Virus record (IMG/VR): IMGVR_UViG_3300026057_000005
DNA: 64,000 nucleotides
Strand: one strand, 5' to 3'
Origin: an uncultured virus (IMG/VR IMGVR_UViG_3300026057_000005)
Lineage: Duplodnaviria > Heunggongvirae > Uroviricota > Caudoviricetes
Part shown: in pieces, positions 5,020 through 61,561 of the stretch
Layout of the letters: each line of letters begins with the position of its first letter
How positions within the stretch are numbered: the first letter of the stretch is position 1
Program-made: the position numbers and the translations under genes
Notes under the pieces: generated by a model
The model's input: the letters and a program-made list of their open reading frames with translations, nothing else
Database searches by the model: none
What the model was told of the DNA's origin: nothing

Positions 5020-5524
5020 ACGCGATCGTCACGCGCGGCTCGAGCTCGTCGTGCGGTTCCGTGGCGTGCTCGACGATCGCCGGGAACGTCAGGAGCATCC
5101 CAGCGCGCGGGGCGACGCGAAGCGACGCGGCGCCGCCGCGGAACAGCGTCGCCGCGCCGCCGGTCGTCAGGTAGAGCACGCCGGAGCATCGCCAGTCGAC
5201 GCCGGTGTGCGCGTGCCAGTCGTGGTAGCTGCCGTTCTCGTGGACGACGGCCCACGCGTGCAACGTCGCACGCGTCGCGTCCGGACGCGAGTCTTCTCGC
5301 GTCCTCGTCTGCGATGGCGATGGCAGGATCAGGCGGGCAATCTGCGTGAGCGTGTGGTGCGCGCGAGGCCATGTCGCGAACTGCTCGCTCGAGCGCCATC
5401 CGCCGACGTTGTGACCGCGCTCGCCGGAGGTCGTGCGCGCCTGATGCAGGATTTCCGCGACGAGCTCGCTGTCGACGCTGATCTCGTCGACGTGCATGCT
5501 CGAGAGCCACCCCGCTAGGTTCAT
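5006..5524 (-). CDS. putative 2OG-Fe(II) oxygenase (TIGR02466/PF13759-like)
   Basis: NVGGWRS, WAVVHENGSYHDWHAH, SGVLYL, PRAGMLLTFP..VEH..P..RVTIAFN; contains an in-frame hairpin element. Confidence 0.8.
   Translation of the reverse strand: MNLAGWLSSMHVDEISVDSELVAEILHQARTTSGERGHNVGGWRSSEQFATWPRAHHTLTQIARLILPSPSQTRTREDSRPDATRATLHAWAVVHENGSYHDWHAHTGVDWRCSGVLYLTTGGAATLFRGGAASLRVAPRAGMLLTFPAIVEHATEPHDELEPRVTIAFNAS
5280..5311 (-). repeat. dispersed hairpin element, in-frame in oxygenase (QTRTREDSRP)
   Basis: CAGACGA GGACGCGAG AAGA CTCGCGTCC GGA on the minus strand. Confidence 0.95.
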
Positions 5525-5946
5525 GGCGCCGGGATCAGGAACAGGTTCACGAAGCACGGCAGGAGCACCGGCGTGTTCGTGCCGTCGGTCATCGCGATCA
5601 GGATCGTCGTCGCGTCTTCCATCGTCGCGGTGATCGTGTTCGGCGGGCTGCTCGTCGACTCGAGCGTCGCGCTCGGGATCGCGAGGCTGGCGTCCGGTAC
5701 CGGTGTCGTGAGCACGACACGCAGGAACGGACTGACGTAGTTCACGCTGGCGACGTTCTGGCCGGCTGCCAGCACCGGGCCTTCGCTGTTCGTGACGTGC
5801 GCCAGCGCGTACGGCGCGCCGGCGCTGCCGATGGCGCGTAGTGGGTTGCCCTGCGAGCCGTCGCCGCGAATCGTGGTGCCGTCGACGGCGACGCGGGTCG
5901 CCTCGGGGATGCGGTTTCCGCCGGGTTGAACCTGGGTCTCGGACAT
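5521..5946 (-). CDS. putative virion spike/fibre-like protein
   Basis: VAVDGTTIRGDGSQGNPL matches the repeat unit of the 61982 spike; beta-rich C-terminus. Confidence 0.6.
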   Translation of the reverse strand: MSETQVQPGGNRIPEATRVAVDGTTIRGDGSQGNPLRAIGSAGAPYALAHVTNSEGPVLAAGQNVASVNYVSPFLRVVLTTPVPDASLAIPSATLESTSSPPNTITATMEDATTILIAMTDGTNTPVLLPCFVNLFLIPAP

Positions 5947-5988
5947 GCGAGCATCCTACACGAAGTCAAGGCACGCAGACACGAAGCC

Positions 5989-6019
5989 ACAACGAGGACG
6001 CAAGGGTTTCGCGTCCGGA
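5989..6019 (+). repeat. degenerate hairpin element upstream of ATG 6031
   Basis: ACAACGAGGACGCAAGGGTTTCGCGTCCGGA. Confidence 0.75.
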
Positions 6020-6030
6020 AGGATTTTTCC

Positions 6031-6552
6031 ATGTCGAATTCGTCCATCATCTCCGGCGGCTCTCCGATTCCAGCGGGCGATACCGTCGTTGCGGATCAGG
6101 TGACCATCCGCGGCGCGGGTACCCCCAACAGTCCGCTGCGTGTGTCCGGAGGCACGGGGTCTCTCGCGCGGACGACGCCGGGCACCTTCATCGCCGGATC
6201 GTCTGTTCGGATCAGCTCCTTCGGGGGCGTGCATGCGGTTCTGTCGAGCGCGCTCGCCATCTCGAGCGCAGACGTGCTTGGCGTTCTGACGGAAGATTCT
6301 CCGGCTGGCGTCGATCTTACGTACCAGTCAACGGGAATCGTGACTCTCACGACGGCGCAATGGGATGCCATTGCCGGAACCTCTGGCGGACTCGACCCGG
6401 GAATTCCGTATTACCTGAGCGATGTGAACTCCGGCGAGCTCCTTCCGCGCGCGTCGATTACCGCGAGCACCCATTGCCTGACGCAGGTCGGTATCGCGAT
6501 CTCGGCAACCGAGCTCCAGTTGCAGATCAGTGCACCCATCGTCATCCCGTAA
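6031..6552 (+). CDS. putative capsid decoration/cement-like protein
   Basis: VVADQVTIRGAGTPNSPL repeat plus a domain (PG.PYY.S...QVG.AIS.T) paralogous to 51227..51667. Confidence 0.6.
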   Translation: MSNSSIISGGSPIPAGDTVVADQVTIRGAGTPNSPLRVSGGTGSLARTTPGTFIAGSSVRISSFGGVHAVLSSALAISSADVLGVLTEDSPAGVDLTYQSTGIVTLTTAQWDAIAGTSGGLDPGIPYYLSDVNSGELLPRASITASTHCLTQVGIAISATELQLQISAPIVIP

Positions 6553-6632
6553 CGCACACCAATCGGCACGGCACTGCGCTGGCTACCCGATCGAAGCCTG
6601 ACGTTATGCGTTTCGTGCGTTACGGTAGCCTG

Positions 6633-6887
6633 ATGAAGGTTTATTCGCTCGGTCTGTTGCTGGCAGTTTGCGTTGCCGAGCTCGGCTGCGGTGACAACGC
6701 GCAGCCGTCGACAGGGCCAGGGCCGGATGCCGGCCCGCTGCCGTCATGCGCGGATCTCAGTTGCGTAGGTATTGGGCTCTGCACGGTTGCCGGCGTATGT
6801 TCGTGTACGATCGATGGCGCAAGCGAGTCTTGCCAGGCGCCGCCGCGGCCGTCGTTCCATCACGACGCCGGCGTCGACGCGCCGTGA
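6633..6887 (+). CDS. small Cys-rich lipoprotein
   Basis: Signal peptide ending ELG-C-GDN; six further Cys; ends DAGVDAP. Confidence 0.65.
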   Translation: MKVYSLGLLLAVCVAELGCGDNAQPSTGPGPDAGPLPSCADLSCVGIGLCTVAGVCSCTIDGASESCQAPPRPSFHHDAGVDAP

Positions 6888-8043: not shown

Positions 8044-8045
8044 GA

Positions 8046-10280: not shown

Positions 10281-10295
10281 GGCTCCGTTAGCCTA

Positions 10296-15273: not shown

Positions 15274-17586
15274 TCACGCCGCCTTCGGCCGCGGCGTGAG
15301 CTTGTCGCGCAGCCAGTGGTACACGTTCGGCCCGAAGCGCAAACCCGCGATGCCGCCGCCGGCGCCGAGCGCGAGCGGCAGGAGCCAGTGGCCCGAGGAC
15401 ACCGCGCCCGCGCCGCCGCTCGGCTTTCGACCGAACGACTCGTTCAGCGGCCCGGGAAACGTGATGTCGTTCTTGTCGAAGTACGCGATGTACTCGACGG
15501 CCTCCGGCATCTGCATCCAGCTTCCGAACCAGTCGTCCGCCTCGTCGGTCGTACCGAACGCCTTCACGACGGCCGGGTTGCCGCGCGGCTGGCAGAACCC
15601 GACGATGTTCGCGATGCTTCCCGTGGCGGCTTGCTTCGCGATACGGCGCAAGTCGTTCGGCGAAGCGCCCGAGCTCGTGACGCTGGCGTTGTCGCCCGCC
15701 TGCTGCGTGACGTCGTTGGCGAACTGCATCGTCGCTTGTGCCGCCCGATCGCCCTGCTTCGCGGCGTTGGCGAGCTCGGCGATCTGCGCGCGCGCGTCGG
15801 GGTTGCCGGCGGCGGCGTTCGCGACGGTCTGCGCGAGGTGATAGCCTGCGGTCGCCTGCGCGACGGCCTTCTCGGCGGTGCCGAGCGCTGCCGCGGCCTG
15901 CGGGTTCGTCTTCGCCAGCGCCTTCGCCTGCTCGACCACCTGCTTGGCGCTGCCGCTGCCGGCTGCCGCGTTGACGAGCGATCCTGCGAGCGACGCCGCC
16001 ATCGGAGCAACGAACGGGCCCGCGCCCGGAATCGCCAGCGCCGCCGCGCCCGCCGCGGTCGACGCCGCGATCGCGATCGGTCCCTTGAACTTCTTCAGCG
16101 TGTGCGCGGCGCCGGACGCCGCGCTCTCGATCGAGTGCGTGAGGCTGTGCCACCACCCCGCACACAGCGCGACGGGGTGCTGCTCGATGAGCGCGCCGAC
16201 GAGCGCGGACACGACGCGGCCCTGCGGATCGCCCTCGGCGAGCGCGCCCATGAGGGCCATCGGCTCGGCGTGGAGCTGCGGATGAAGCGCGCGGATCCGA
16301 TCGTCGATCACGCCGCCGAGATCGGCCGCACCCGTGTAGCACTTGCCGTCGATGCAGAGCTGTACGACGAGGTTTGCGCCCTCGAGCGACAGGTTGACCG
16401 TCGTGCCGCGCACGCCCGGCGCGATGACGGGCGCGATCGACACGAGGCGATCGTCGAGCGCGGTCGGCGGCGTCGCGGCGACACCGACGATCTGATAGCC
16501 GGCGGGCGAATAGCCTTCGGCGAGGTAGAGGTCACGGCGGTATCCAGAAGAGATCACGTTGCGCTCGACTTTCTCCGGCAGACGCTGGAACGCCGGAATC
16601 TGGGGGCTGATGGACGAGGAGATGCGTGCGCGCTCGCGCGAGCTCGCGCTCGTCGCGTACCTGTCGCGATCGCGCTGCGCGAATTCGCGCGCGACCTGGT
16701 AACGCACGGCGAGCCACACCGGGATCATCGCGCGGTCGTTCGGATCGTTGCGGTTGAGATCCTCGCCCCACTTGTATCCGGTCGACTCCCAGAACCGGAT
16801 GTTGGTGACGCGGTTCATCTCGGCGACGAGCGGATCGGGGCGCGCGGCGCCAGAGGAGACGGCGGCTGCCGCACCCGACGGATCGGGCGCGCTCGAGACG
16901 CTCGCATCGTCGAGCGCCTCGTCGAGGACATCGGGCGCCGGATCGCCTTCCTGATCGGCGTTGACGACGTCGCGCGTGCGGTCCTCGGGCACGGGCTCGG
17001 CGGGCGACGTGTCGTCGATGTTCGGATCGACGTCCTCGGCGAGCGTGTTCACGTCGGAGACGATCCACACGTAGCCGGCGGGCCCCCACCACCAACGACC
17101 CGGCGAGCGATGGCCGTGGCGGTAGAACCCGCCGCGACCATGGAAGCCGTGCATCGGGCGACGCGCCGGCGCGGGGCGATGGCCTGCCGGATGCCCTCCG
17201 CCTCCACCATGGCCATGGCCGGCGACGAGTGCCGCGCCGCCATCTCCGACGACCGTCGGCAACGTCGGAACCGGGATGCTCCAGCGCGGACTACGCGCGA
17301 GCGCACGGAGTGCGGTGAGGCTGCGCGCGTACGCGTTCACCGTCGCCTCGTCGAGCTTGCCGCCGGTCTGCTCCCATGCCTCGTAGAACGCGGTGATCCA
17401 GGGGTTCCACGCGTCGTGAAACCACGCGTTCATCGCGCGCCGGTTGTCGCCGGTGACGTGCTGCCCGATGCGGCCCCAGAAGTTCTCATGGAGCGCGACG
17501 ATGTCGACGAGTCGCTGGGCGTTGCCGGACTTCACAGACGAGGACGCGAAGTTTTCGCGTCCGGACGATGCGGTAGTTGCGGTCAT
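15274..17586 (-). CDS. large multidomain membrane-anchored putative virion protein
   Basis: ~770 aa from ATG 17586; W-rich helical domain, RFWESTGYK domain, Ala-rich hydrophobic region, C-terminal TM helix. Confidence 0.75.
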   Translation of the reverse strand: MTATTASSGRENFASSSVKSGNAQRLVDIVALHENFWGRIGQHVTGDNRRAMNAWFHDAWNPWITAFYEAWEQTGGKLDEATVNAYARSLTALRALARSPRWSIPVPTLPTVVGDGGAALVAGHGHGGGGGHPAGHRPAPARRPMHGFHGRGGFYRHGHRSPGRWWWGPAGYVWIVSDVNTLAEDVDPNIDDTSPAEPVPEDRTRDVVNADQEGDPAPDVLDEALDDASVSSAPDPSGAAAAVSSGAARPDPLVAEMNRVTNIRFWESTGYKWGEDLNRNDPNDRAMIPVWLAVRYQVAREFAQRDRDRYATSASSRERARISSSISPQIPAFQRLPEKVERNVISSGYRRDLYLAEGYSPAGYQIVGVAATPPTALDDRLVSIAPVIAPGVRGTTVNLSLEGANLVVQLCIDGKCYTGAADLGGVIDDRIRALHPQLHAEPMALMGALAEGDPQGRVVSALVGALIEQHPVALCAGWWHSLTHSIESAASGAAHTLKKFKGPIAIAASTAAGAAALAIPGAGPFVAPMAASLAGSLVNAAAGSGSAKQVVEQAKALAKTNPQAAAALGTAEKAVAQATAGYHLAQTVANAAAGNPDARAQIAELANAAKQGDRAAQATMQFANDVTQQAGDNASVTSSGASPNDLRRIAKQAATGSIANIVGFCQPRGNPAVVKAFGTTDEADDWFGSWMQMPEAVEYIAYFDKNDITFPGPLNESFGRKPSGGAGAVSSGHWLLPLALGAGGGIAGLRFGPNVYHWLRDKLTPRPKAA
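17535..17565 (+). repeat. dispersed hairpin element (antisense within CDS, reads SGRENFASSS)
   Basis: CAGACGAGGACGCGAAGTTTTCGCGTCCGGA. Confidence 0.95.
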
Positions 17587-17795
17587 AGGTCGACTCCGAG
17601 TTTGCGCCATTCGGCGGCGGTTTTCGAGAAGCGTTGCGTTCCGTCGAGGGAGGTGAGTTGCACGTTCGGGCTGACGCCGCCCCACAGGACGGAGGAGAAC
17701 ACGTAGAGCGGCGCGCCGCCTACGTTGACGAGGACGCGCTTGCCGGCGCGCGTGCGCGCGAGCATCTTCTCGAGGCGGTGTTGCTGGCTTGCCAT
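17583..17795 (-). CDS. hypothetical protein
   Basis: Begins MASQQHRLEK; ATGA-coupled to the next gene; bracketed by hairpin elements. Confidence 0.6.
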   Translation of the reverse strand: MASQQHRLEKMLARTRAGKRVLVNVGGAPLYVFSSVLWGGVSPNVQLTSLDGTQRFSKTAAEWRKLGVDL

Positions 17796-17805: not shown

Positions 17806-17828
17806 TCCGGACGCGATCTTATCGCGCG
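17806..17828 (-). repeat. partial hairpin element
   Basis: CGCGCGATAAGATCGCGTCCGGA; 5-prime part missing. Confidence 0.65.
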
Positions 17829-18454
17829 TTGAGCGCTCTGTGTTCGGCGATCCACGCATGAACGCCCTCAAGATTCCGGAAGTCATTGCCCGTCGGTGCG
17901 TACGTACCGCTACGTCCGATTTCTTGCATGATCTGGTAACGCCCTCGATGCGCAGCGCCAGGCGCAGTCGCGTCATCAAAGACGGCGTAGCCGCCAAGGC
18001 CGAACAGACGAGGTAGTTTCCATGCGCGCACTCGTGTCTTTCCAGACCTGTCTGCTTCGATGACGGTCCATGTCGGTTTGAATGCCGTGTCCTTCGCTGA
18101 TTTTTGCCGAAATGCTGCGCGAACTTCGCCGGGCGTACCTCCGCGCGCAAGAATCGGCTTTGCTACGGCAACAAGGCGAGGGATTTCATCCGCGTCGTAA
18201 AGGATCGAGTCGTCCAGCACATACCAGCCGACGCGTCTCCCTACGTCGATCGATTCTGGCGTTCGCCCGCCCGTGCCCTTGATGATCGTGCCAAATCGAC
18301 CGACGGTGAGTGCGCCATCGCCATACAGGAACAGATCCTTGCCGTCCGCGGTTCCGCTGCCCTTTTGTGCGATGGACTTGCCAATGATTTCGCGTGATGA
18401 CGCCTTGGCAAGCTCGCGATCGATTTCCGCCCTCAGTTGCGACGCCGTTTTCAT
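17819..18454 (-). CDS. hypothetical protein with N-terminal KTASQLRAEI tag
   Basis: ATGA overlap start; visibly more AT-rich than its neighbours. Confidence 0.7.
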   Translation of the reverse strand: MKTASQLRAEIDRELAKASSREIIGKSIAQKGSGTADGKDLFLYGDGALTVGRFGTIIKGTGGRTPESIDVGRRVGWYVLDDSILYDADEIPRLVAVAKPILARGGTPGEVRAAFRQKSAKDTAFKPTWTVIEADRSGKTRVRAWKLPRLFGLGGYAVFDDATAPGAAHRGRYQIMQEIGRSGTYAPTGNDFRNLEGVHAWIAEHRALNAR

Positions 18455-22243: not shown

Positions 22244-22388
22244 CCGGATCGCGGGATTGCGATACGGCTGCCACCCGTCAACGAAGGCTACGACGCCGAC
22301 GGGCGCAAATTATACTGCGATGAGAAAGAACACCCCGCGCTCGGGAAAGGAGTGACGCGCTCTGGATCCCGGCGTCAGCCGAAATTCA

Positions 22389-22417
22389 CAGCGAGCTCGA
22401 AGAAGTCTTCGAGCGGA
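22389..22417 (+). repeat. variant hairpin element with alternative stem
   Basis: CAG-CGA GCTCGAAG AAGT CTTCGAGC GGA. Confidence 0.85.
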
Positions 22418-22421
22418 TTCA

Positions 22422-22452
22422 CAGACGAGGACGCGAAATTTTCGCGTCCGGA
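22422..22452 (+). repeat. dispersed hairpin element
   Basis: CAGACGAGGACGCGAAATTTTCGCGTCCGGA. Confidence 0.95.
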
Positions 22453-22944: not shown

Positions 22945-22974
22945 TCCGCTCGAAGACTTCTTCGAGCTCGTCTG
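22945..22974 (-). repeat. variant hairpin element with alternative stem
   Basis: CAGACGA GCTCGAAG AAGT CTTCGAGC GGA, 8 nt before ATG 22936. Confidence 0.9.
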
Positions 22975-22999
22975 AATCGGGGTTCTCTTGATCACCGAA

Positions 23000-23063: not shown

Positions 23064-23513
23064 CTAGCCTCTACGTCGTGTCCCGTAGCCGCGTTGCTGG
23101 ATCTCGGCGAGCTCTTTCGCGGACACCGTCACCGGCGTCATCTGGCCGACGACGATCTTCCGCTTGCGGTTCTCGAGGAGGACGTTGACGCCCATGTCGG
23201 TCAACTTGATCGTCCACCGAAACGGCCGCGTCTCACCGGGGCGTACGTACTCGCGCTCGCGCACGACTTCGGCGTTGATCATGCGTCGAATGACCTCGCG
23301 CGACTCGGCCTTGATCCCGTCCCACGTGAAGCCGATCTCGTGATCGGGCGCGGCGAACATGTGCTCCATGATCGCGAACGCCGCCGGCGGAAGCCGGAGC
23401 TCGGTCTGCACGTCGTGCTGGATCTTGAGGTCGACGAGACCTCCGATCTCTACCCGGTCTTCCGGACGCGAAGATTTCGCGTCCTCGTCTGTGCAATCCG
23501 ACACGAGGCTCAC
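23064..23513 (-). CDS. putative winged-helix-like protein
   Basis: GTGA overlap start; WTIKLTDMG wing-like motif; in-frame hairpin element near the N-terminus. Confidence 0.55.
   Translation of the reverse strand: MSLVSDCTDEDAKSSRPEDRVEIGGLVDLKIQHDVQTELRLPPAAFAIMEHMFAAPDHEIGFTWDGIKAESREVIRRMINAEVVREREYVRPGETRPFRWTIKLTDMGVNVLLENRKRKIVVGQMTPVTVSAKELAEIQQRGYGTRRRG
23461..23491 (-). repeat. dispersed hairpin element, in-frame (TDEDAKSSRP)
   Basis: CAGACGAGGACGCGAAATCTTCGCGTCCGGA. Confidence 0.95.
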
Positions 23514-24099: not shown

Positions 24100-24903
24100 A
24101 TGTCCAACCATCGAAATGCGCGAGGCAATCCGACTTCCCAGGAAGTTGTCAAGTCTGTTTATACGCGCACCGAGACGATGGCGATCCTGGGCTGCTCGAT
24201 GACGTCGGTGATTCGCATGGAAGCGCACGGCACGCTGACGCGAAAGACGATCGTCAAGCCGACGAAGGGTGGCCGAACCGACATCGAGGTGGTCGTCTAC
24301 GAGGCCAGCGAGGTCACGCGCCAGGCGGAGCGCATGGGGAAGCGGATGCGGATGCGCGGCAACGGCGAGATGCAGTCCATCCCGGAAGGCGAGTTGACGG
24401 CGATCGCGTTCGAGATGTTCGATCGCGGGTGCTCGCTGCGCGAGGTGCTCGTGCGCACGCGCGAGCCCGTCGACAAGGTGCAGGACATGTACGACGCGTG
24501 GCTCGACATGGGCGGCAGCGCGATCACGATCTCGACCGTGGCACAGGCCGAGCTCGAGCGCTTCGTGGGGCCATTCGCGTCCATCGCCGAGCTCGTACAG
24601 CGCGTCGCTGATCGCATCGGCGAGCGCGTCGATCTCGACGACGCCGCAGCGGTCGTCGTCGGCGGCGCGCCGGACGTCGCGATCGAGCGCGCGATCATCG
24701 AGGCGCTTGACGTCGCCGCGCAGACGCCAGGGCTCGCGCACATCGGCGAGTGCGTCGATCTTGACGACGCCGCGGCGGCCGTTGTCGACGGCGCGCCGGA
24801 CGTCGCGATCGATCGCGCGATCACCCTGGCACTCGACGCCGCGGACGTCGCAGACGAGGACGCGGGGCGCGTGCTCGCGTGTGGACCGGACGCGACCGCA
24901 TGA
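24100..24903 (+). CDS. HTH DNA-binding protein with C-terminal tandem duplication
   Basis: YTRTETMAILGCSMTSVIRMEAHGTL (MerR/excisionase-like HTH); two copies of IGE.VDLDDAAA.VV.GAPDVAI.RAI. Confidence 0.7.
   Translation: MSNHRNARGNPTSQEVVKSVYTRTETMAILGCSMTSVIRMEAHGTLTRKTIVKPTKGGRTDIEVVVYEASEVTRQAERMGKRMRMRGNGEMQSIPEGELTAIAFEMFDRGCSLREVLVRTREPVDKVQDMYDAWLDMGGSAITISTVAQAELERFVGPFASIAELVQRVADRIGERVDLDDAAAVVVGGAPDVAIERAIIEALDVAAQTPGLAHIGECVDLDDAAAAVVDGAPDVAIDRAITLALDAADVADEDAGRVLACGPDATA
24851..24885 (+). repeat. degenerate hairpin element
   Basis: TCG-CAGACGAGGACGCGG...CTCGCGTGTGGA. Confidence 0.6.
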
Positions 24904-26147
24904 CGGTTTCGCTCGTCGCCGCGCCGGCGTTCGCGTGCTCGAAGTGCCACCACCTCGAGCGCGTTCGTCATAGCCGTTGCTCGGGCTGCGGGCAGTGGCA
25001 CACGCTTGTGCCGGTGAGCGAGCTCGCACCCGGCGCATCGTCGACGTTCGATGCGGATCCAGCCGCGCGCGTCGTCGGCATCATCGATGTCGCGAAGGCG
25101 CACCCCGATCCGTCAACGATTGGCAGCGTCGGGCTCGAGGTGCTGCGCGATCAACGCAGCGGTCGCGCGGGCGATTCACAGACGAGGACGCGAGAAGCCT
25201 CGCGCCCGGACGCTCGCGCGCTGCCGATCGTGCCGTTTCACGGGCGCGAGCTCGCGCCGAGTCCCGTCGAGCGCGTCGCGCGCGGCGTCAGCACGCCGAC
25301 GCGCATCACCGAGATCGAGGCGGCGGCGCACTTCCGCTACACGACGGGGATCCCGGGGCTCGATCGCGTGTTCGGCCTCGAGCCCATCCCGCCCGACGGC
25401 GGCGCGCTGGCCGGCTGCGTCCGTGGTGGCATCTACCTCCTGAGCGGCTCGCCGGGTGCCGGCAAGTCGACGCTCCTCATGCAGATGATCTCGAGGATCG
25501 CTGGCGACGCGCTCGTGCTCTACGCCTCCGGTGAAGAAGCCGCCGCGCAGATCGCGGCACGCGCGCATCGCGTCGACGCCGCGCGCCCGAATATCCTTCT
25601 CGTCGCCGAGACTGATCTCGAGGCCATCCTGGCGCACGCGCGCGCGCTGCGTCCGCGCATCCTGATCGTCGACTCGATTTCTACGATCTCGACGGCGTAC
25701 GAGAGCGGCATCCCGGGCAGCGTTACGCAGGTCAAGGCGTGCGCGGCCGAGATCGAGCGCTACGCGCACGACGCCGAGTACCCGACGACCGTCTTCATGA
25801 TCGGGCACGTCACACAGGACGGCAAAACGGGCGGCCCACGCGCGCTTCAGCACCTGGTCGACGTGCTGCTCGAGCTCGACGGCTCGGATCTGCGCGTCCT
25901 GACGTCGCCGAAGAATCGTTTCGGTTCGACGCTCGAGCGCGCGGCGTTTCGCATGACGGCGGCCGGGCTCGTCGAGGTCGACGAGGGCGAGATCGCGGCC
26001 GAGGAAGCCGAGCGCGACGCGCGGTTCTTGCCGATCGCGCAAGAGCTCCTGAACCGCTACCTGGCGCTCGGCGGTCACCTCGACGACGGGCTGCGCCAGC
26101 GGATCGACGATCGGCTCGACCTCGAGATGTGGCACGAAACGAGATAG
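24900..26147 (+). CDS. radA: RadA/Sms-like RecA-family ATPase lacking the C-terminal Lon-like domain
   Basis: CSKC...CSGC..W Zn finger, GSPGAGKST, YASGEE, IVDSI, IGHVT, KNRFG. Confidence 0.9.
   Translation: MTVSLVAAPAFACSKCHHLERVRHSRCSGCGQWHTLVPVSELAPGASSTFDADPAARVVGIIDVAKAHPDPSTIGSVGLEVLRDQRSGRAGDSQTRTREASRPDARALPIVPFHGRELAPSPVERVARGVSTPTRITEIEAAAHFRYTTGIPGLDRVFGLEPIPPDGGALAGCVRGGIYLLSGSPGAGKSTLLMQMISRIAGDALVLYASGEEAAAQIAARAHRVDAARPNILLVAETDLEAILAHARALRPRILIVDSISTISTAYESGIPGSVTQVKACAAEIERYAHDAEYPTTVFMIGHVTQDGKTGGPRALQHLVDVLLELDGSDLRVLTSPKNRFGSTLERAAFRMTAAGLVEVDEGEIAAEEAERDARFLPIAQELLNRYLALGGHLDDGLRQRIDDRLDLEMWHETR
25179..25210 (+). repeat. dispersed hairpin element, in-frame in the RadA linker (QTRTREASRP)
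   Basis: CAGACGAGGACGCGAGAAGCCTCGCGCCCGGA. Confidence 0.9.
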
Positions 26148-31082: not shown

Positions 31083-31201
31083 CGCGTCGGCGCCTTGCCC
31101 GTCGCTCGCATCTCCGCGATCGCGTCCGCGTACTGCTTCCTCATCGCGTCGGCGCCTTGCCCGTCGCTCGCATCTCCGCGATCGCGTCCGCGTACTGCTT
31201 C
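31078..31201. repeat. perfect 62-bp tandem duplication
   Basis: 31078-31139 is identical to 31140-31201. Confidence 0.95.
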
Positions 31202-33606: not shown

Positions 33607-34991
33607 TGCGCCACCTCGTGCTCGCGCTCGCGCTCGTCGGCGAGCCATCGCGCGCGCTGCTCGCGCTGCTCGCGCTCGGTCAGCGTGCCGCCACTATCGG
33701 CGCCGCCTTCGCTCTTGCGCTTGCGCGTCGGCTTCGCCAGGCTCGCCGCGATGAAGCCGTCGAGCGTGATGCCCTGCGCCGCCAGCGACGCGACGACGTC
33801 ATCGTGCGGCACGACGTAGCCGCCGAGATACTTGTCGTCCGTCTCGCGCATCCGCGTGCGCTCGACCTCGATCGCCTTCTCGAACGCCGCTTCGGCCTTC
33901 AACCGCTTCGCGCTCCGAACCGGGTGGCGGTACGCGACGACACAGCCGTTCGGGCGCGACATGAACACGAAGTGGTCATCCGGACGCGAGCCTTCTCGCG
34001 TCCTCGTCTGTGAGGTCGGCGCCTCGAGCGTCGCGCGCACGTCGACGCGCATGCCGACGAGCGCGCGGCGGATGAGCTCGCCGCGATCCGGCACGCGCTC
34101 GCCCGCGGGGACGACGAACCGCTCGCCATCCGCGATCGCGACCGCGTGCTCGAGCACGCCGGCCGGCGCCGATCCCCAGGCGATCCAGCAACCGGTGGGC
34201 GTGGCGACCTTGATCGAGATCTTCCAGGTGAACCCGTAGTCGCTCTCGCGCAGCTTCGCGCTCGTGATCACGCCTTCGAAGTCGATGCCCTTCCCGGTCG
34301 GAGCCGGCACATGGACTTCTTCGGGTGCGGGCGGGCGCGGGTTCCGGATCTCGTTGGCGAGCTTCACGACGAGCGCGATCTGTTTGTCCGACAGGGAGGC
34401 GAACTCGACGAACCGCGCCGCGATGTCGGCGATGATCTGCGCGCCGCGCGAGGCGTTGCTTTCTGCGCTGCCGACTTCGAACGCTTCGGCGAGTCCCGGG
34501 TGCTCGGCGAGGAACGCGGCGCGATCCTCCGCGCGCTCGGCTTTGCGGATCTGCGTGGCGATCGCGGCACGATGGCGCCCGTTCGCGAGCTCGGCAGCCG
34601 AGCGGTCCATCATGAGGCCGTACTTCTGCGCGCAGTCGTGGCCGAGGTGCACGTAGTCGCCGGTCGGCACGTGCAGCCAGAGCTCGCCGTAGATGAACCA
34701 CGCGCCGCACGAGCCGCACTTGCCGGGCGCGCCGAACACTTCCTTGCCGGCCGCTTCGGCGCGACGGTGTGCTTCGCACGTGCAGCACACCGGACGGTGC
34801 GCGGCGTTGCACGCGCCCTCGGCAATGATCGCGCCTGTCGCGTCCATCTTGCGGCGGTCGAGCCCGCACGTGATGCCGAACGACGGCACCGGCCAGCCGT
34901 CTTGCGACGTCGCGCAGTTGTAGGCGATCGCGGCCTCGTAGTCGGCAGGGACGATCGCACCGGGGCGGTGCGGGTCGGTGCGCTTGGTCAT
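33603..34991 (-). CDS. Zn-finger/OB-like phage protein
   Basis: CGSCGA...G.DCA, LSDKQ, VPAPTG, OB-like C-terminal part; TACAAT 6 nt before ATG. Confidence 0.7.
   Translation of the reverse strand: MTKRTDPHRPGAIVPADYEAAIAYNCATSQDGWPVPSFGITCGLDRRKMDATGAIIAEGACNAAHRPVCCTCEAHRRAEAAGKEVFGAPGKCGSCGAWFIYGELWLHVPTGDYVHLGHDCAQKYGLMMDRSAAELANGRHRAAIATQIRKAERAEDRAAFLAEHPGLAEAFEVGSAESNASRGAQIIADIAARFVEFASLSDKQIALVVKLANEIRNPRPPAPEEVHVPAPTGKGIDFEGVITSAKLRESDYGFTWKISIKVATPTGCWIAWGSAPAGVLEHAVAIADGERFVVPAGERVPDRGELIRRALVGMRVDVRATLEAPTSQTRTREGSRPDDHFVFMSRPNGCVVAYRHPVRSAKRLKAEAAFEKAIEVERTRMRETDDKYLGGYVVPHDDVVASLAAQGITLDGFIAASLAKPTRKRKSEGGADSGGTLTEREQREQRARWLADEREREHEVAQ
33979..34010 (-). repeat. dispersed hairpin element, in-frame (QTRTREGSRP)
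   Basis: CAGACGAGGACGCGAGAAGGCTCGCGTCCGGA. Confidence 0.95.
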
Positions 34992-37571: not shown

Positions 37572-37602
37572 TCCGGACGCGAAGACTTCGCGTCCTCGTC
37601 TG
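37572..37602 (-). repeat. dispersed hairpin element, intergenic after the polymerase
   Basis: CAGACGAGGACGCGAAGTCTTCGCGTCCGGA. Confidence 0.95.
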
Positions 37603-37609
37603 TGAGCCC

Positions 37610-41336: not shown

Positions 41337-41598
41337 GCTGGTACTCCTCGTCGAGCTGAGCGCGCAGTGAGTCGCTCGAAAATTTCGCGTCCTCGTCTGT
41401 GATGGCGCGCTCGATCTCGCGCAGGTCACCCCGTGCAACGGCGCCGAGCCGCACGAGCCCGGCAGCGTGAGCCGCGCAGTACGTCGATTCCGTCAGCCAG
41501 ATCCCGCCGTCTGGCGAGCGCGTGCCGACGATGATTCTCCAACGAGGACGCAGCGCGCATCTTCTTTCGGTTCGCAGCACCTGATTACAGTTGTCCAT
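41329..41598 (-). CDS. hypothetical protein
   Basis: AAAGG RBS; C..C..YC..H motif; carries hairpin-derived TDEDAKFS. Confidence 0.55.
   Translation of the reverse strand: MDNCNQVLRTERRCALRPRWRIIVGTRSPDGGIWLTESTYCAAHAAGLVRLGAVARGDLREIERAITDEDAKFSSDSLRAQLDEEYQRA
41369..41399 (-). repeat. hairpin element with decayed right arm, in-frame
   Basis: CAGACGAGGACGCGAAATTTTCGAGCG. Confidence 0.8.
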
Positions 41599-45099: not shown

Positions 45100-45335
45100 G
45101 AGCGGCTCCTGATCATGTCGCTGACGTGAAATGCGATGAACCCGACGGTGACGCACGCGAGCGCCGTGATCGCACCGACCGACCAGGGCACCGCGTCGCA
45201 CGTCAGCATCGCGCTGATCGTGCCGACGCCGCCTGTAACCGCGAGCAAGCCGACGGTCTCGGCCGTCGACTCGTGGCGGCGCTGTCGACGTCCGGACGCG
45301 ATCCTATCGCGTCCTCGTCTGTGATGCTCCAGCAT
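45096..45335 (-). CDS. small two-TM membrane protein
   Basis: TGATG coupling; two hydrophobic segments; N-terminus encoded by a hairpin element. Confidence 0.5.
   Translation of the reverse strand: MLEHHRRGRDRIASGRRQRRHESTAETVGLLAVTGGVGTISAMLTCDAVPWSVGAITALACVTVGFIAFHVSDMIRSRS
45291..45321 (-). repeat. dispersed hairpin element
   Basis: CAGACGAGGACGCGATAGGATCGCGTCCGGA, identical to the 60648 copy. Confidence 0.95.
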
Positions 45336-45541
45336 CACGCGGCCCTCGCCTGCGTAACGTTGGCCGCGCCGTTCGTGTTCGCCTCGTGCTTCGCGATGAG
45401 ATCGCGGATCACGTCGGAGAATCGAACGCCGCGCTCGCGCGCCCACTTCTCGACGAGCTGCACCTGGCGACGATCCATGCGGATCGATCGCGCGCGGCGC
45501 GGGGCGGGCGCGGACGGCTTGCGCGTTCGCTCGTTCTTCAT
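45335..45541 (-). CDS. ribbon-helix-helix (CopG-like) regulator
   Basis: RSIRMD.....VEKWARERGVRFSDVIRDLI. Confidence 0.7.
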   Translation of the reverse strand: MKNERTRKPSAPAPRRARSIRMDRRQVQLVEKWARERGVRFSDVIRDLIAKHEANTNGAANVTQARAA

Positions 45542-45650
45542 CGAAGGAGTGTGTAATACGTTCGTACGACGTTGGTCAATGTCGTTCGATCCGAAATCGT
45601 GATCGACCGACGAGCAATCGTGACGATCCCGGGCTTCGGCACGAACGCCT

Positions 45651-50596: not shown

Positions 50597-51064
50597 ATGC
50601 CCGAGTTCAGCATCTACAAGTCGGAGCACTCCGTCCGGATCGAGAACACGCTCCTGAAGCAGAAGATGCGCGAGCTCGAGGCCGAGAACGCACGGCTGCG
50701 CGCGAAGGCCGGCGAGGAACCGATCGCGGTCTCCGCGCTCGCCGCGAGCGAAGAGTCGACGTCGTTCAAGGCCGGCAACTGCTCGGTGCAGATCGGTCAG
50801 GGCGCGGGCCGCACCACGGGACAGGCGTCGGTGAACCCCGCGCGCACGCCGCGCCCGCCGCAGCGGCAGCCGCAGCAGCAGGTCGCTCGACGCGCGCCGC
50901 AACCGCAGCGCGGGTACCAGTACAGCGACGACACCGTCAACGGCGGCTATGCCGATCAGCAGGAGCAAGCACAGCCCGCGATGGTCGGCTCGCAGCCGGC
51001 CGCGCGTCGCGTCGACGACGGCGACGAGGCCGTCATGCGGTTCTCGATGCTCGAGCTCGACTGA
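50597..51064 (+). CDS. coiled-coil / Gln-rich protein
   Basis: TACAGT 6 nt before ATG; ends RFSMLELD. Confidence 0.7.
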   Translation: MPEFSIYKSEHSVRIENTLLKQKMRELEAENARLRAKAGEEPIAVSALAASEESTSFKAGNCSVQIGQGAGRTTGQASVNPARTPRPPQRQPQQQVARRAPQPQRGYQYSDDTVNGGYADQQEQAQPAMVGSQPAARRVDDGDEAVMRFSMLELD

Positions 51065-51067: not shown

Positions 51068-51098
51068 TCCGGACGCGAAAATTTCGCGTCCTCGTCTG
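51068..51098 (-). repeat. dispersed hairpin element directly after a stop codon
   Basis: CAGACGAGGACGCGAAATTTTCGCGTCCGGA on the minus strand. Confidence 0.95.
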
Positions 51099-51226
51099 TG
51101 AATTCGGCCTCCGGCCGGGATGCAGATGAGACAGGGGGGTAGCGCTCGGGCACTTGACTTCCGCCGCGCATCGGCGATCCTCGGGGGGAAGCTAAGTCGC
51201 CGCCGCGCGACGGAAAGATCTCCCAC

Positions 51227-51770: not shown

Positions 51771-51893
51771 GTGTCCGTAACTTAACGGTAGAGGGCTGGG
51801 CGTATGTGCTGGCGCAATGCCTTCGGGTCGCGGACCCACGGGCAGACGGTGCAGATGAACCCGGCAGTGCCAGTTCGAATCCGGCCGGACACA
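51771..51893 (+). tRNA. tRNA-like gene with a ~59-nt anticodon loop (intron-like insertion); identity unassignable
   Basis: GTGTCCG/CGGACAC acceptor, TA linker, D-loop AACGGTA, CTGGG/CCCGG stem, GCCAG-TTCGAAT-CCGGC T-arm. Confidence 0.6.
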
Positions 51894-58769: not shown

Positions 58770-59416
58770 AGTTGTTCCCCTACTTCGGCGAGGGCGGTGT
58801 GTCGCGCCCGCTCGGCCTCGAGATGAGTCAGAACCGTCTCGCCGTCCCGACGTGGAGCTACGCGATGGAGATCGCTCCACCGGCGCGGATCGTCGAGATC
58901 GGGCACGCGGGCGGAGGCTTCACGACCGCGCTCGCGCTCCATGCTCACCTGATCGGTGCGGAGGTGTGGTCGTTCGACCTGTGTGCCGTCAACCAGCGCT
59001 ACGCGCCGATCGCTCACCAGTTCGGCGTTCACTTCGTGCAGATCGACGTGTGGGGTCAGGCAGCGCAGGAGCATCTCGAGCGCTTGATCGCGCGCCCGGG
59101 GCCGACGTTCGTCCTGTGCGACGGCGGCGACAAGCACCGCGAGCTCGCGCTGTTCGCGCCGTTCTGCAAACCGGGCGACGTACTCGCCGCGCACGACTAC
59201 GACGCGATGCACGAGCGCGATCCGTCGAGTGACCAGCTTGCGCGGCCGTGGCCCTGGTGCGAGACCCGCAAGGCGGTCGGCGACGAGGTCGCGCAAAAGC
59301 ACAACCTCGAGCCCTGGCTTCAGGAGCATTTCGATCTCGCCGGGTGGCTCGCGTACCGCAAGCGCGACGTGTCGCAGACGAGAGCGCGAGAAGTCTCGCG
59401 TCCGGAAGGCGCCTGA
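58766..59416 (+). CDS. SAM-dependent methyltransferase-like protein
   Basis: RIVEIGHAGGGFT, SFD, LCDGGDK, KPGDVLAAHDY; C-terminus encoded by a hairpin element. Confidence 0.75.
   Translation: MKLFPYFGEGGVSRPLGLEMSQNRLAVPTWSYAMEIAPPARIVEIGHAGGGFTTALALHAHLIGAEVWSFDLCAVNQRYAPIAHQFGVHFVQIDVWGQAAQEHLERLIARPGPTFVLCDGGDKHRELALFAPFCKPGDVLAAHDYDAMHERDPSSDQLARPWPWCETRKAVGDEVAQKHNLEPWLQEHFDLAGWLAYRKRDVSQTRAREVSRPEGA
59375..59406 (+). repeat. dispersed hairpin element, in-frame at the C-terminus (QTRAREVSRP)
   Basis: CAGACGAGAGCGCGAGAAGTCTCGCGTCCGGA. Confidence 0.85.
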
Positions 59417-59712
59417 TGGAGATCGACATCCCAAGCCCAGCGTTCGAGGTTAAGTCACACGAGTTGACCGACGAAGAGGACGAAGCATTGCTCACCGCAT
59501 GGCTTGCATGGTCCTCATTGAAATCTCCTGGCAACCTCGTGAATCTTCGCTGCGTTGTCGAACGCGTTCGATTCGAGGTAACGATCAGGCGCAGGACCGA
59601 AAAGATCAGCAGACTCGTCGACACTGGACGCAGACACAACGATCGTTACATCACGAACCGCGCCATCAAGATGATCGCCAACCTCGGAGCACACGACGAG
59701 GAGGACATATGA
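59416..59712 (+). CDS. hypothetical protein (lower GC)
   Basis: TGATG coupling. Confidence 0.5.
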   Translation: MEIDIPSPAFEVKSHELTDEEDEALLTAWLAWSSLKSPGNLVNLRCVVERVRFEVTIRRRTEKISRLVDTGRRHNDRYITNRAIKMIANLGAHDEEDI

Positions 59713-60644
59713 AGCTCGCCCTGACGATCATGACCGGCCGCGCCGACCCGAAGATCGAGTGGATCACGCAGTCGCTCGACCAGCAAGCGCGGACAGGCGA
59801 CGAGATCCACCTGATCGTCGTTAACGCGCTCCTCGCGCACGACGCCTCGCGCACGATCGACGTGGGTCCGGGGCGCTCGCCGAGCCATCCCTGGCTCGCG
59901 GGCGTCACGCACACCGCGCCCAAGCCGAACGTCTGGCAGGGCGCGCAGCGCGTGACGAGCTCAGACTGGTGGGCGACGTCGAACGCACGCAACACCGCGC
60001 TCGTCGTGTGCCCCGAAGGCTACGACTACCTCGCGTTCCTCGACGATCGTTGCCGACTCGGGCCGCACTGGCTCGACGCGGTCCGCGACGCGTACACGAA
60101 GCGGGCCTCCGTCATCGCGGGCGCGTACGTGAAGACGGAGGGGCCGGCCGACGATCCGCTCCAGCAGGTCACCGCGAAGGATCATCGCGCCGGGCTTCAC
60201 CCGAGCGGAAAGATCAACTGCGGTGGCGGTTGGCTCTACGGATGTTCGTTCGCGCTGCCGCTGGCGTGGGCGCTCGAGGTCAACGGCTTCGAGGAGGCGT
60301 GTGACGGGCTCACCGGCGAGGACTACATCTTCGGCCTCATGCTCGGCAACCGGGGGCGGCGCATCGACTACCGCACCGACATGCTCGTCATGCAGGACCG
60401 GACGCGCGGCAACGAGTCGTGCAAGGGGAGCTATCGCTGCACCGACAAGGGCGTGTCGCCGAACGATAAGTCGCACGCCGCGCTCGCGAGGTTCGGCAAG
60501 CGCGATCGCACCGACGCGCGGTTCACGCCCGACCTGACCGCGCTCCGCGCGCGCTACCAGCGCGGCGAAGGCTTCCCCGATGTCGATCGATCGATCGAGC
60601 ATCGCGACTGGTATGACGGACAACCCATTCGAGAGATGACCTGA
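59709..60644 (+). CDS. GT-A fold glycosyltransferase (paralogue of 55297..56208)
   Basis: PKPNVWQG..RVTS.D....SNARNT...YLAFLDDR...WLYG..FALP...VNGFEE..GED. Confidence 0.8.
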   Translation: MKLALTIMTGRADPKIEWITQSLDQQARTGDEIHLIVVNALLAHDASRTIDVGPGRSPSHPWLAGVTHTAPKPNVWQGAQRVTSSDWWATSNARNTALVVCPEGYDYLAFLDDRCRLGPHWLDAVRDAYTKRASVIAGAYVKTEGPADDPLQQVTAKDHRAGLHPSGKINCGGGWLYGCSFALPLAWALEVNGFEEACDGLTGEDYIFGLMLGNRGRRIDYRTDMLVMQDRTRGNESCKGSYRCTDKGVSPNDKSHAALARFGKRDRTDARFTPDLTALRARYQRGEGFPDVDRSIEHRDWYDGQPIREMT

Positions 60645-60647
60645 TCG

Positions 60648-60678
60648 CAGACGAGGACGCGATAGGATCGCGTCCGGA
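60648..60678 (+). repeat. dispersed hairpin element flanked by 12-bp direct repeats
   Basis: AGATGACCTGAT at 60634-60645 and 60680-60691. Confidence 0.95.
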
Positions 60679-60691
60679 AAGATGACCTGAT

Positions 60692-61261
60692 ATGCGCAAG
60701 ACCACCGTGACCTGCGATCGCTGTAGCCGAGACGTCGATACCGGCTACCTCGAGCTCTCGATCGACGGCTATCGAAAACTACACACGTGCTCCATCTGCA
60801 CGCCACTGCTCGTCGAATTCTTCGAGGCCGCCGGACGAAGCTACGCTGACGGTCTCGGATCGCTCACTCGCCATCAGCACGTCGAACGACTCGAAATCGC
60901 GAAGGACAACGACACCATCGCCGAACGGAACGGCGGATTACAGATCTCCAGCGACGGAGGTCGGCTGCCGCGGGTGATCCAGTCCATCGACGTGATCGGA
61001 GACCTCGACGGGTGGGAGATTTGCGACGTGTCCGTCGGCAATCGTAGGCAGTTCTCGCCCGATGGGCCGCGCTCTAATGCGGAGTGGATGGCGCAGTTCT
61101 CCAACATGAGCAAGGCGGACGCCGTCATGCCTCGCATGAAAGTAGCCATCGTCTTGATTCGTGTTGGTGATCCGATTCAGGTCTCGAAAGCGCCCGCGTT
61201 CGAGATCACGTTCCTGCGCTCCGGCTTCGCCGATCTCGCCGACGCCGAGGACAAGTTGTGA
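60692..61261 (+). CDS. Zn-finger fused to a capsid-like domain paralogue
   Basis: CDRC...CSIC then WEICDVSVGNRRQFSPDG, resembling WIINDITIGNRSQFAQSG. Confidence 0.6.
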   Translation: MRKTTVTCDRCSRDVDTGYLELSIDGYRKLHTCSICTPLLVEFFEAAGRSYADGLGSLTRHQHVERLEIAKDNDTIAERNGGLQISSDGGRLPRVIQSIDVIGDLDGWEICDVSVGNRRQFSPDGPRSNAEWMAQFSNMSKADAVMPRMKVAIVLIRVGDPIQVSKAPAFEITFLRSGFADLADAEDKL

Positions 61262-61479
61262 CCAAGCTCGAGGCGGCCGAAGGCGAGCTCAAGCACGCCG
61301 CGAAGGCGTACGGCAAGGCCGTCGGCGACGACGCCGTCGCATGGCGCGAGCTCGCGCGCGCGGCCCTGCGCTACGCCGCGGCGTGGACCGAAGACAGCGC
61401 ACGCAAGGCAGGGTCGGGGCTGCGCCAGGCGGGCGACTTCATCGCGGGGTTGCGCGGACGCGCACGGCGCACCGAGTAG
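61258..61479 (+). CDS. small helical protein
   Basis: GTGA overlap. Confidence 0.5.
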   Translation: MTKLEAAEGELKHAAKAYGKAVGDDAVAWRELARAALRYAAAWTEDSARKAGSGLRQAGDFIAGLRGRARRTE

Positions 61480-61484
61480 CCTCA

Positions 61485-61561
61485 TAGGCGATGACGCGAA
61501 TTTTCGCGTCCGGAAGATTGCTAAGATTCGCAGACGAGGACGCGAAATTTTCGCGTCCGCA
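61485..61561 (+). repeat. tandem pair of hairpin elements (61485-61514 degenerate; 61531-61561)
   Basis: TAGGCGATGACGCGAATTTTCGCGTCCGGA and CAGACGAGGACGCGAAATTTTCGCGTCCGCA. Confidence 0.9.

Follow-up and report, generated by a model that had tools for sequence, protein, structure and literature searches.

Tagged repetitive extragenic palindromes (REPs) form super-families, GTAG-tagged and CGTC-tagged, that include RPE-4 and RPE-6 of Rickettsia and dRS3 of Neisseria (PMC3733652). As described there, they are 20–40 bp long, carry an unpaired conserved tag at one end and fall into sub-families by stem, loop or tail; Table 1 of that study gives the CGTC-tagged type a stem of 8–9 bp, a loop of 4–5 nt, a 3-bp unpaired tail and no linked transposase. 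In the REP/RAYT (TnpA-REP) system, a HUH tyrosine nuclease recognises the hairpin together with a 5' GTAG motif on single-stranded DNA (PMC8266576). Rickettsia palindromic elements (RPEs) are about 150 bp long and lie in frame in unrelated genes, where the encoded peptide is placed compatibly with the protein fold (PMC10969869). Dispersed repeats are also described from phages. Cluster O mycobacteriophages carry the 17-bp palindrome 5'-TGTTCGGNNNCCGAACA 34 times, with 10 of the copies within genes (PMC4351075), and the PeSLs of T4-like phages are promoter and terminator cassettes linked to gene gain and loss (PMC2839356, PMC4122927). The present text concerns a short, tagged hairpin element dispersed over 64,000 nt of DNA from an uncultured virus (IMG/VR record IMGVR_UViG_3300026057_000005), the whole of which is called the window below. 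On balance, this element is probably a non-autonomous, REP/RPE-like palindromic mini-element whose copies turn over through insertions and deletions and which has colonised the virus.

The unit is 34–36 nt long and consists of a 10-nt tag, TCRCAGACGA, a hairpin of 20–22 nt and the tail GGA. The G+C-rich stems are perfect and without bulges, and have 9 bp with a loop of 3–4 nt or, in an alternative reading, 8 bp with a loop of 5–6 nt. There are about 19 copies in 64 kb, or about 1 per 3.4 kb (Table 1), and among the 87 perfect hairpins of the window they make up the one dispersed hairpin family, which is also its sole specific dispersed repeat. The stem motif GGACGCGA-N4-8-TCGCGTCC occurs 10 times, with 0 matches in 100 dinucleotide-preserving shuffles. 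An unfiltered covariance-model search of the window returned 16 full-length matches at E<1e-3, scoring 28–59 bits, and two weaker ones: copy 24847 at E 0.0037, and the alternative-stem copy 22385 at E 0.12, which model score alone does not separate from noise. Read on the opposite strand, the hairpins do not exceed 21.7 bits, and the top-scoring unrelated match has 15.7 bits. The dispersed, asymmetric family proposed in an earlier note on this DNA is thus real, and the 12 full copies listed there were all recovered as full-length matches at 47–59 bits. The six copies that it called degenerate fared unevenly: the model recovered those at 5989 (42 bits), 61485 (44.5 bits), 41369 (28 bits) and, weakly, 24851 (22 bits); 17806 was found only by a regular expression allowing two mismatches; and 20414, with only a tag-like stretch and part of one arm, is no longer counted.

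Conservation within the unit was assessed on an alignment of 20 copies, 16 from the window and 4 from two metagenome contigs, L088 and L106. Each position of the tag is kept in 17–20 of the 20 copies and each position of the GGA tail in 18–20, and a G is favoured 2 nt beyond the tail (14/20). Both flanks are therefore conserved, as had been claimed, and the 5' flank is longer than stated at the time. Stem pair 9, the innermost, covaries as first noted: it is G-C in 5 copies (loop AAGN, 22-nt hairpin), A-T in 9 (loop RTY) and T-A in 2 (loop AGG). These pairs were tabulated by script from 20 usable rows, with one mis-registered row ignored, because MAFFT misaligns the 21-nt, 22-nt and alternative stems. 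Two copies, identical to each other, retain the tag and the GGA tail around an alternative stem, the perfect 8-bp hairpin GCTCGAAG/CTTCGAGC, in which both partners are changed at pairs 2, 3, 6, 7 and 8 relative to the standard stem; this bears out a further claim of the earlier note. Standard stems fold at −11.3 to −12.6 kcal/mol as DNA and −15.6 to −17.8 kcal/mol as RNA, with z-scores of about −3.3 to −4.7. The hairpin is maintained by compensatory change, with tag and tail fixed. Given the covariation and the alternative stem that keeps tag and tail, what is kept is pairing plus a one-sided tag, a combination that argues against a symmetric duplex operator.

In architecture the element resembles the tagged REPs as PMC3733652 presents them. 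It has their size, a one-sided unpaired tag, a stem of 8–9 bp, a short loop, a 3-nt tail and sub-types set apart by stem, loop or tail, some of its copies lie in coding regions, at protein ends or in loops, and the CGTC type is likewise without a transposase gene. The earlier note had seen no resemblance to known analogues, a view that does not stand beside these super-families and their members RPE-4 and RPE-6. The sequences differ. The tag of the element is the 10-nt TCRCAGACGA, whose ACGA adjoins the stem in 17–20 of 20 copies; CGTC is seen in it only when the tag is read as its complement (…TCGTCTG, which on that strand follows the stem on its 3' side), if the tag orientation in PMC3733652 is as its text suggests; and the tail is GGA instead of CCA. 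The carrier differs as well, being a virus-like genome, and the word 'phage' is absent from the main text of PMC3733652. With REPs in general the element shares a short palindrome in high copy number that is mostly extragenic, and with the REP/RAYT system, as characterised in PMC8266576, a hairpin directly preceded, on its 5' side, by a short guide-like motif. On the other hand, it forms no inverted doublets of the REPIN or BIME kind, its four close pairs all being head-to-tail (22385/22419, 61482/61528, and one each in L088 and L106); and a RAYT, whose gene is typically flanked by REPs, was not found among the roughly 96 open reading frames (ORFs) of the window. Insertion in frame into unrelated genes is common to the element and the RPEs of PMC10969869, with about 150 bp there against 36 nt (12 codons) here, and with the present element found mid-gene only as the sub-type with a 22-nt hairpin and always in one frame.

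The phage repeats are similar in another way. Like the Cluster O palindrome and the PeSLs, as the cited studies describe them, the element is present as a large set (tens) of short, nearly identical inverted repeats, of which most lie at the borders of genes and some are intragenic. The Cluster O repeat, in that description, is symmetric and invariant and has no one-sided tag, in contrast to the covariation and one-sided tag found here, and the element differs from the PeSLs in matching neither a sigma-70 promoter nor a T-run terminator and in forming unit-sized indels. Neither of two other well-known types fits. Miniature inverted-repeat transposable elements have terminal inverted repeats and target-site duplications, whereas here a single hairpin with dissimilar ends makes up the entire unit and a flanking direct repeat occurs at only 1 of 18 copies. 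Integron attC sites are imperfect palindromes of about 57–141 bp with extrahelical bases, found beside an IntI tyrosine recombinase; here the stems are perfect, the window ORFs include no tyrosine recombinase, and the copies are dispersed instead of lying in a cassette array.

The one syntenic relative available provides a view of turnover. Metagenome contig L088 (1,351 nt) is syntenic with window positions 44448–45634, over 1.2 kb and at 70–79% nucleotide identity, and 0 of 3 element sites are common to the two, the differences being in-frame indels of 30–60 nt. The methyltransferase gene of L088 contains a 42-nt in-frame insert (14 codons, an antisense unit) where the window has none. In L088, two tandem units with a 30-nt period lengthen the C-terminus of a small membrane-protein ORF; in the window, the 5' part of this ORF carries the roughly 30 extra nt of copy 45291, with no copy at the orthologous place in L088. 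The units in L088 and L106 are 97–100% identical to window copies (31/31, 34/34), far above the identity of the flanks. Copies have thus been gained and lost between related genomes as frame-preserving, unit-sized indels. Such filled and empty sites favour mobility or turnover, one of the roles envisaged in the earlier note, over fixed operators. By contrast, ten IMG/VR loci around distant homologues (29–43% protein identity, 169 kb in total) hold no copy and no comparable repeat, and the family is therefore lineage-restricted. Four DNA metagenome runs, and no RNA run, were listed as containing the sequence; the assemblies of these four break at the repeats, with no skip of 30–60 nt among the rows listed, and these breaks are uninformative on polymorphism and expression. 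A second small palindrome at 45321–45338 (GTGATGCT..AGCATCAC) overlaps the tag of copy 45291 and the region in which the small ORF starts, and L088 has nothing that corresponds to its 3' arm.

Copies decay (17806, 24847 and 41368 are examples), duplicate head-to-tail and accumulate between genes, and the 36-nt form also occurs inside them. By the authors' own gene calls, made with a self-trained ORF caller, coding sequence covers 87% of the window, and 12 of the 19 copies lie in the remaining 13%. Seven or eight of the 19 are inside ORFs, and three of these were checked against homologues. The oxygenase bearing copy 5280 aligns over its full length with a paralogue at 30235–30861, with the element in a gap or loop region; the segment encoded by copy 25176 is absent from 6/6 aligned homologues, and the motif encoded by copy 33979 from 13/13. 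As judged from these alignments, the intragenic copies appear to be insertions into tolerant sites such as loops and linkers. Mid-gene copies are exclusively of the 22-nt-hairpin sub-type, and the four window copies with this hairpin, together with the L088 tandem, are all read in one same frame as exactly 12 codons (5/5 cases), although the other two sense frames are also open. The reading, TCR CAG ACG AGG ACG CGA GAA GNC TCG CGT CCG GAN, contains rare codons (AGG, CGA, GAA, CGT) that are atypical for a genome with about 87% G+C at third codon positions (GC3), and it varies in a single base, in the loop, which is position two of one codon and makes the residue D, A, G or V. The rare codons and the non-synonymous variable base indicate that a nucleotide hairpin is conserved and not a peptide, and on these grounds a conserved peptide motif was rejected. 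Translational bypass was rejected too, all mid-gene copies being in frame.

Beyond the window and L088, the unit is found on L106, a metagenome contig of 2,115 nt with a GC3 of about 0.95. It encodes two proteins: a 284-aa fragment without Pfam match, outer-membrane-barrel-like by the authors' reading, and a Gfo/Idh/MocA oxidoreductase whose nearest named homologues, 65–77% identical, come from metagenome-assembled genomes labelled Deltaproteobacteria, Proteobacteria, Myxococcales and Kofleriaceae. Two antisense tandem units fill the 65-nt spacer between the two genes, and a start at the GTG within the second tag brings the protein into line with its homologues, whose N-termini read MIRV…. The public call for this oxidoreductase (359 aa) starts upstream and reads through both units (L106 855–930), an annotation artefact caused by the repeat. 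As the tandem pair lies on a bacterial-looking contig, the family is not purely viral, contrary to what had been assumed; its presence suggests that the family also lives in a myxobacterial-type chromosome, possibly that of the host.

Wider searches produced little else. A scan of 241 million metagenome records gave 37 loci, with tag plus tail only in L088 and L106, and among 185,579 GTDB species genomes the stem was matched at 29 loci, once at each, and always without the tag. In IMG/VR, a 15-mer scan returned 85 single unrelated matches (80 of them listed), and the full pattern gave 0 matches. Three candidate-host genomes contained chance-level, non-hairpin matches only, and in one phylum none of 401 genomes matched a relaxed pattern. 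The closest orthologues of the L106 oxidoreductase in one class, represented by 151 genomes, were only 54–65% identical, and the covariance model found the element in 0 of 5 genomes holding oxidoreductase orthologues of 57–65% identity.

A dedicated enzyme was looked for by Pfam and PHROGs searches of the roughly 96 window ORFs, none of which matched a Y1/HUH (RAYT) transposase, an integrase, a tyrosine recombinase or an HNH nuclease; the earlier note had likewise seen neither HUH transposase nor tyrosine recombinase. The gene at 22457–22936, bracketed by inverted copies, encodes a Gly/Ala-rich membrane-like protein, and a REPtron around this gene was rejected since the protein is not HUH-like. 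Searches of Rfam likewise agreed with the earlier expectation that no described family would match: no family reached its gathering threshold at the element, the only match in the window is tRNA-like and lies elsewhere, and in permissive scans the best match at the copies scored 17.5 bits against a cut-off of 81.

The mini-element reading draws these observations together as follows. The carriers of the family are a phage-like genome that encodes a DNA polymerase B of protein-primed type, a fragment of a related phage and a Myxococcota-like chromosomal contig. One strand of the unit would fold as single-stranded DNA, exposed by strand-displacement replication of a protein-primed genome, and a structure-specific enzyme acting in trans would recognise the hairpin and its tag and copy or move the unit. 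Candidates for the enzyme are a host RAYT/HUH-like nuclease, one whose gene lies in the 13.7 kb by which the contig extends beyond the window, or another nuclease. Selection would then retain only the copies that neither break genes nor terminate transcripts. The surviving copies would be transcribed and may serve secondarily as hairpins at 3' ends or in 5' untranslated regions; the tail may give part of the ribosome-binding site in several copies, and the tag a GTG start in antisense copies. Both the enzyme and the single-stranded stage are proposed by analogy with REP/RAYT (PMC8266576) and from the strand-displacement replication expected of a protein-primed genome.

Several points weigh against this reading. 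The turnover evidence comes from one syntenic relative, of 1.35 kb, and three sites. No flanking direct repeat of at least 8 nt adjoins 17 of the 18 copies examined. At copy 33979, the closest homologues (70–72% identity) have a different, longer segment in place of the encoded motif, so that this event was a replacement and not a clean insertion. The assignment of L106 to a Myxococcota-like chromosome, and not to a virus, is drawn from gene content only, and the scans above found no genome with many copies. The window ORFs include no candidate transposase, as already stated. The sense bias of 15:4, described below, fits function or selection at the RNA level as well as neutral selfish spread. 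Finally, compared with REPs as described in PMC3733652, there is no GTAG tetranucleotide 5' of the palindrome, the first stem bases are G-G where the CGTC-tagged type has A/T, and pairs are head-to-tail, an arrangement that is negligible there, head-to-head being predominant. The architecture fits the tagged REPs while the tag, the first stem bases and the pairing do not, which makes the element a relative in kind and not a member.

As the principal alternative, the element would work in cis as an RNA signal, the target of a binding or cleaving protein from virus or host, for instance an endoribonuclease like Cas6/Csy4 or a regulator of translation. Such a signal would separate or stabilise polycistronic messages and expose a GGA-led ribosome-binding site, and the turnover would then be regulatory rewiring. 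Orientation is what recommends it. Of the 19 copies, 15 run with local transcription (sense) and 4 against it (antisense; 14:3 by locus; two-sided binomial about 0.013 by the authors' arithmetic), and copy strand tracks gene strand, not genome strand, even in a short plus-strand island at 24–26 kb, which points to transcription-linked selection or function and not to replication direction. Many of the sense copies directly follow a stop codon or precede a start codon by 8–13 nt, and in several of the latter (5986, 22945, 59372 and 60645) the tail is extended to GGAAGG or GGAAAG. The four antisense copies, at three loci, follow a stop codon at a distance of 3–17 nt in every case. Folding as RNA is stable, and an invariant, single-stranded 10-nt tag is as expected for recognition by a protein. 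Yet cleavage at the three mid-gene copies would destroy the message, none of the three sites is conserved with L088, the tag would be missing from the RNA at the four antisense copies, and no RNA-binding nuclease was recognised among the window ORFs. An RNA signal as the whole explanation is thus unlikely, though it and the mini-element reading can hold at once, as is also the case with bacterial REPs.

Transcription signals of simpler kinds were also considered. In two scanned regions, no copy matches a sigma-70 promoter or T-run terminator consensus, the antisense hairpin being followed by TCGTCTGYGA and the sense hairpin by GGA, and both functions were rejected. A promoter of the extracytoplasmic-function type or for a single-subunit polymerase was dropped by reasoning: the Pfam scans contain no such polymerase, and orientation or spacing does not fit.

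Somewhat more doubtful than the RNA signal is a self-propagating hairpin cassette adapted to the virus, whose spread would be tied to virus biology and not to RAYT. An as yet unrecognised enzyme of the virus, a nuclease or one that processes RNA, would act on the folded tag and hairpin in the displaced single strand of a protein-primed genome or in a transcript, and the codon-exact 36-nt form would enter genes at codon boundaries and in one frame. It would represent a new class of mobile regulatory or coding insert common to a phage and its myxobacterial host.

Improbable by comparison is a recombination hub or module boundary resembling the PeSLs, in which identical units let homologous recombination shuffle genes and their spread is a by-product. 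Precedent exists in the PeSLs themselves, so far as described (PMC2839356, PMC4122927), most copies lie at gene borders, and the gene at 22457–22936 is flanked by alternative-stem copies that form the only inverted pair, 530 bp apart. Moreover, an exact 12-nt direct repeat, AGATGACCTGAT, brackets copy 60645 (60633–60690), the sole such case among the 18 copies examined; it duplicates the last codons and stop of the upstream gene just ahead of the start of the next gene, and looks like a target duplication or slippage scar. However, 34–36 bp is short for homologous recombination, the differences from L088 are gains and losses of the unit and not of genes between units, mid-gene copies of 12 codons are not module borders, and the unit has neither the sigma-70 promoter nor the T-run terminator of a PeSL.

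A set of double-stranded operators for a virus-encoded regulator, like stoperators or the Cluster O palindrome, is if anything harder to sustain. Dispersed, near-identical palindromes, some of them intragenic, are known in phages (PMC4351075, for the repeat described there), and among the proteins of the window are small ones resembling DNA-binding proteins (weak HicB/Arc-like matches) and one that contains sigma-70 region 4. Against this, the compensatory changes alter the half-site sequence and keep the pairing, the alternative stem has only tag and tail in common with the standard unit, a symmetric dimer site would not need a strong one-sided tag of 10 nt, and the sites are not conserved in syntenic L088.

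The weakest proposal concerns CRISPR repeats, of which the units would be solitary mimics (RNA anti-CRISPR, Racr-like) or stray repeats. Hairpin-type CRISPR repeats have a similar size of about 35 nt and a similar layout of hairpin plus conserved tail, and Rfam includes CRISPR direct-repeat families. It is very improbable: the antisense reading does give a 3-nt lead, a hairpin and a handle of 10–11 nt, and solitary viral repeat units are known, as PMC10651486 reports, but there is no array (the scans of species genomes and metagenomes gave single matches per locus, save L088) and no Rfam match, transcription would read 15 of 19 copies in the wrong direction, and neither in-frame copies in mid-gene nor a density of about 19 per 64 kb is expected of a decoy.

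Table 1. Copies of the tagged hairpin element in the 64,000-nt window
Copy	Position	Strand	Score (bits)	Context and remarks
Full, 22-nt hairpin; inner pair G-C, loop AAGA	5280..5314	-	52.7	In frame inside 2OG-Fe(II) oxygenase gene 5006-5524(-); encodes SQTRTREDSRPD; frame open throughout
Degenerate; tag ACAACGA, one stem mismatch	5986..6019	+	42.1	Tail extended to GGAAGG; 11 nt upstream of ATG of gene 6031-6552(+)
Full, antisense to local minus-strand genes	17532..17565	+	58.6	17 nt past stop of gene 17583-17795(-); at or just before start of large gene 15274-175xx(-); frame change across element; tag offers possible GTG start
Decayed	17806..17836	-		Regular expression with 2 substitutions only, no model match at E<=10; 3' arm and GGA tail retained, 5' arm and tag degenerate; 10 nt before ATG of 17583-17795(-)
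Alternative stem, antisense; perfect 8-bp hairpin, tag TTCACAGCGA, loop AAGT, tail GGA	22385..22417	+	15.2, not separable from noise by score alone	Head-to-tail, directly before copy 22419; downstream of gene 22457-22936(-)
Full, 21-nt hairpin, antisense	22419..22452	+	56.8	4 nt past stop of 22457-22936(-)
Alternative stem, sense; perfect hairpin	22945..22977	-	33.9	Inverted relative to copy 22385; tail runs on as GGAAAG, 8 nt upstream of ATG of gene 22457-22936(-)
Full, 21-nt hairpin, sense	23461..23494	-	56.5	After stop of gene 23510-23983(-); in frame within first 20 codons of ORF 23064-23513(-), if its start is the GTGA overlap
Partial; tag and 5' arm intact, rest replaced	24847..24903	+	22.1 (E 0.0037)	At 3' end of gene 24178-24903(+)
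Full, 22-nt hairpin; one A.C mismatch	25176..25210	+	51.5	In frame in RadA/Sms-like ATPase gene 24900-26147(+), in linker between zinc finger and ATPase domain; encodes SQTRTREASRPD
Full, 22-nt hairpin	33979..34013	-	53.3	In frame in gene 33603-34991(-) of 462-aa zinc-finger protein; encodes SQTRTREGSRPD
Full, sense, intergenic	37572..37605	-	56.2	4 nt after stop of protein-primed-type DNA polymerase B gene, 79 nt before next gene
Partial; tag, 5' arm and loop intact, 3' arm decayed	41368..41404	-	28	31 nt upstream of gene 40743-41336(-)
Full; inner pair T-A, loop AGG	45291..45324	-	51.1	5' part of small membrane-protein ORF (45096-45446)
Full, antisense	51068..51101	-	58.5	3 nt past stop of gene 50597-51064(+); not flagged as intrinsic terminator in consensus scan
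22-nt hairpin; 2 weakened pairs	59372..59406	+	47.2	In frame, last 15 codons of FtsJ-like methyltransferase gene; encodes SQTRAREVSRPE; tail GGAAGG precedes ATG overlapping stop of that gene
Full, intergenic; inner pair T-A, loop AGG	60645..60678	+	49.3	Between 59709-60644 and 60692-61261
Slightly decayed, 20-nt hairpin; tag TCATAGGCGA	61482..61514	+	44.5	First of head-to-tail pair; 2 nt after stop of gene 61258-61479
Full; tail GCA not GGA	61528..61561	+	55.3	Second of pair; 13 nt before ATG of gene 61575-61739

The window itself has a G+C content of 65–71% and has the look of a phage-like element that is novel. It encodes a DNA polymerase B (37610–39925, minus strand) of the organellar/viral, protein-primed type, at best 26% identical to the polymerases of tectiviruses, and the contig of about 78 kb (77,738 nt) is unusually large among known viruses having such a polymerase. 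A megablast comparison of 20 kb of the window with 50,697 phage records found no related record, and the polymerase query found no relative in IMG/VR. Other recognisable genes encode a D12 adenine methyltransferase, two 2OG-Fe(II) oxygenases, ThyX, a DUF3560/primase-like protein, a RadA/Sms-like ATPase, an AAA ATPase and the protein with sigma-70 region 4. There are also a weak match to a cement protein and a beta-helix fibre-like protein, and the weak HicB/Arc-like matches lie at 61575–61736. The conserved 462-aa zinc-finger protein (33603–34991, minus strand) has the motifs GKCGSCGA and GHDCAxKY and belongs to no Pfam family; its 70 homologues, some of them on IMG/VR contigs of 100–400 kb (L152–L161), mark it as a widespread uncharacterised phage protein.

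Several further features of the window may be recorded. The Rfam tRNA match, at 51771–51893 on the plus strand, scores 40 bits (gathering score 29) and spans 123 nt for a model of 71 positions, so that an insert of about 50 nt is needed; ARAGORN found no tRNA in the window, and the match could be an intron-containing or degenerate tRNA gene. A 300-nt direct repeat of 95% identity (20510–20809 and 21449–21748) occupies the downstream (3') ends of two neighbouring minus-strand genes, which are a recent paralogue pair. Gene 24178–24903(+) contains an internal tandem duplication of 102 nt at 24615–24842 (87% identity, 126-nt spacing). At 26580–26950, in gene 26448–27419(-), triplet repeats rich in CCG/GCC give a Gly-rich, collagen-like coding repeat, where metagenome contig depth is very high and mixed and loose ends are many. 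The longest perfect hairpin of the window, with a 14-bp stem and a 6-nt loop, lies at 31205–31238; it is unrelated to the dispersed family and overlaps the called gene 31141–31479(-) near its downstream end.

No description of a REP-type family populating a virus genome was found in searches of open-access full texts, nor in PMC3733652 and PMC10969869. REP-type palindromic repeats have been treated as features of bacterial chromosomes, and here one occurs in a novel phage-like genome of about 78 kb, where it remodels phage proteins by insertions of 10–14 residues and appears to contribute to the ribosome-binding site or start codon of some genes. So dense a set of perfect hairpins in one phage genome is also relevant to host defences that detect palindromic DNA, such as those described in PMC11707656. 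The family offers a compact system in which to study how REPs without a transposase are mobilised. Finally, with the unit present both in this phage-like genome and on a Myxococcota-like contig, such a repeat family could serve as a signal that links uncultivated phages to their hosts.

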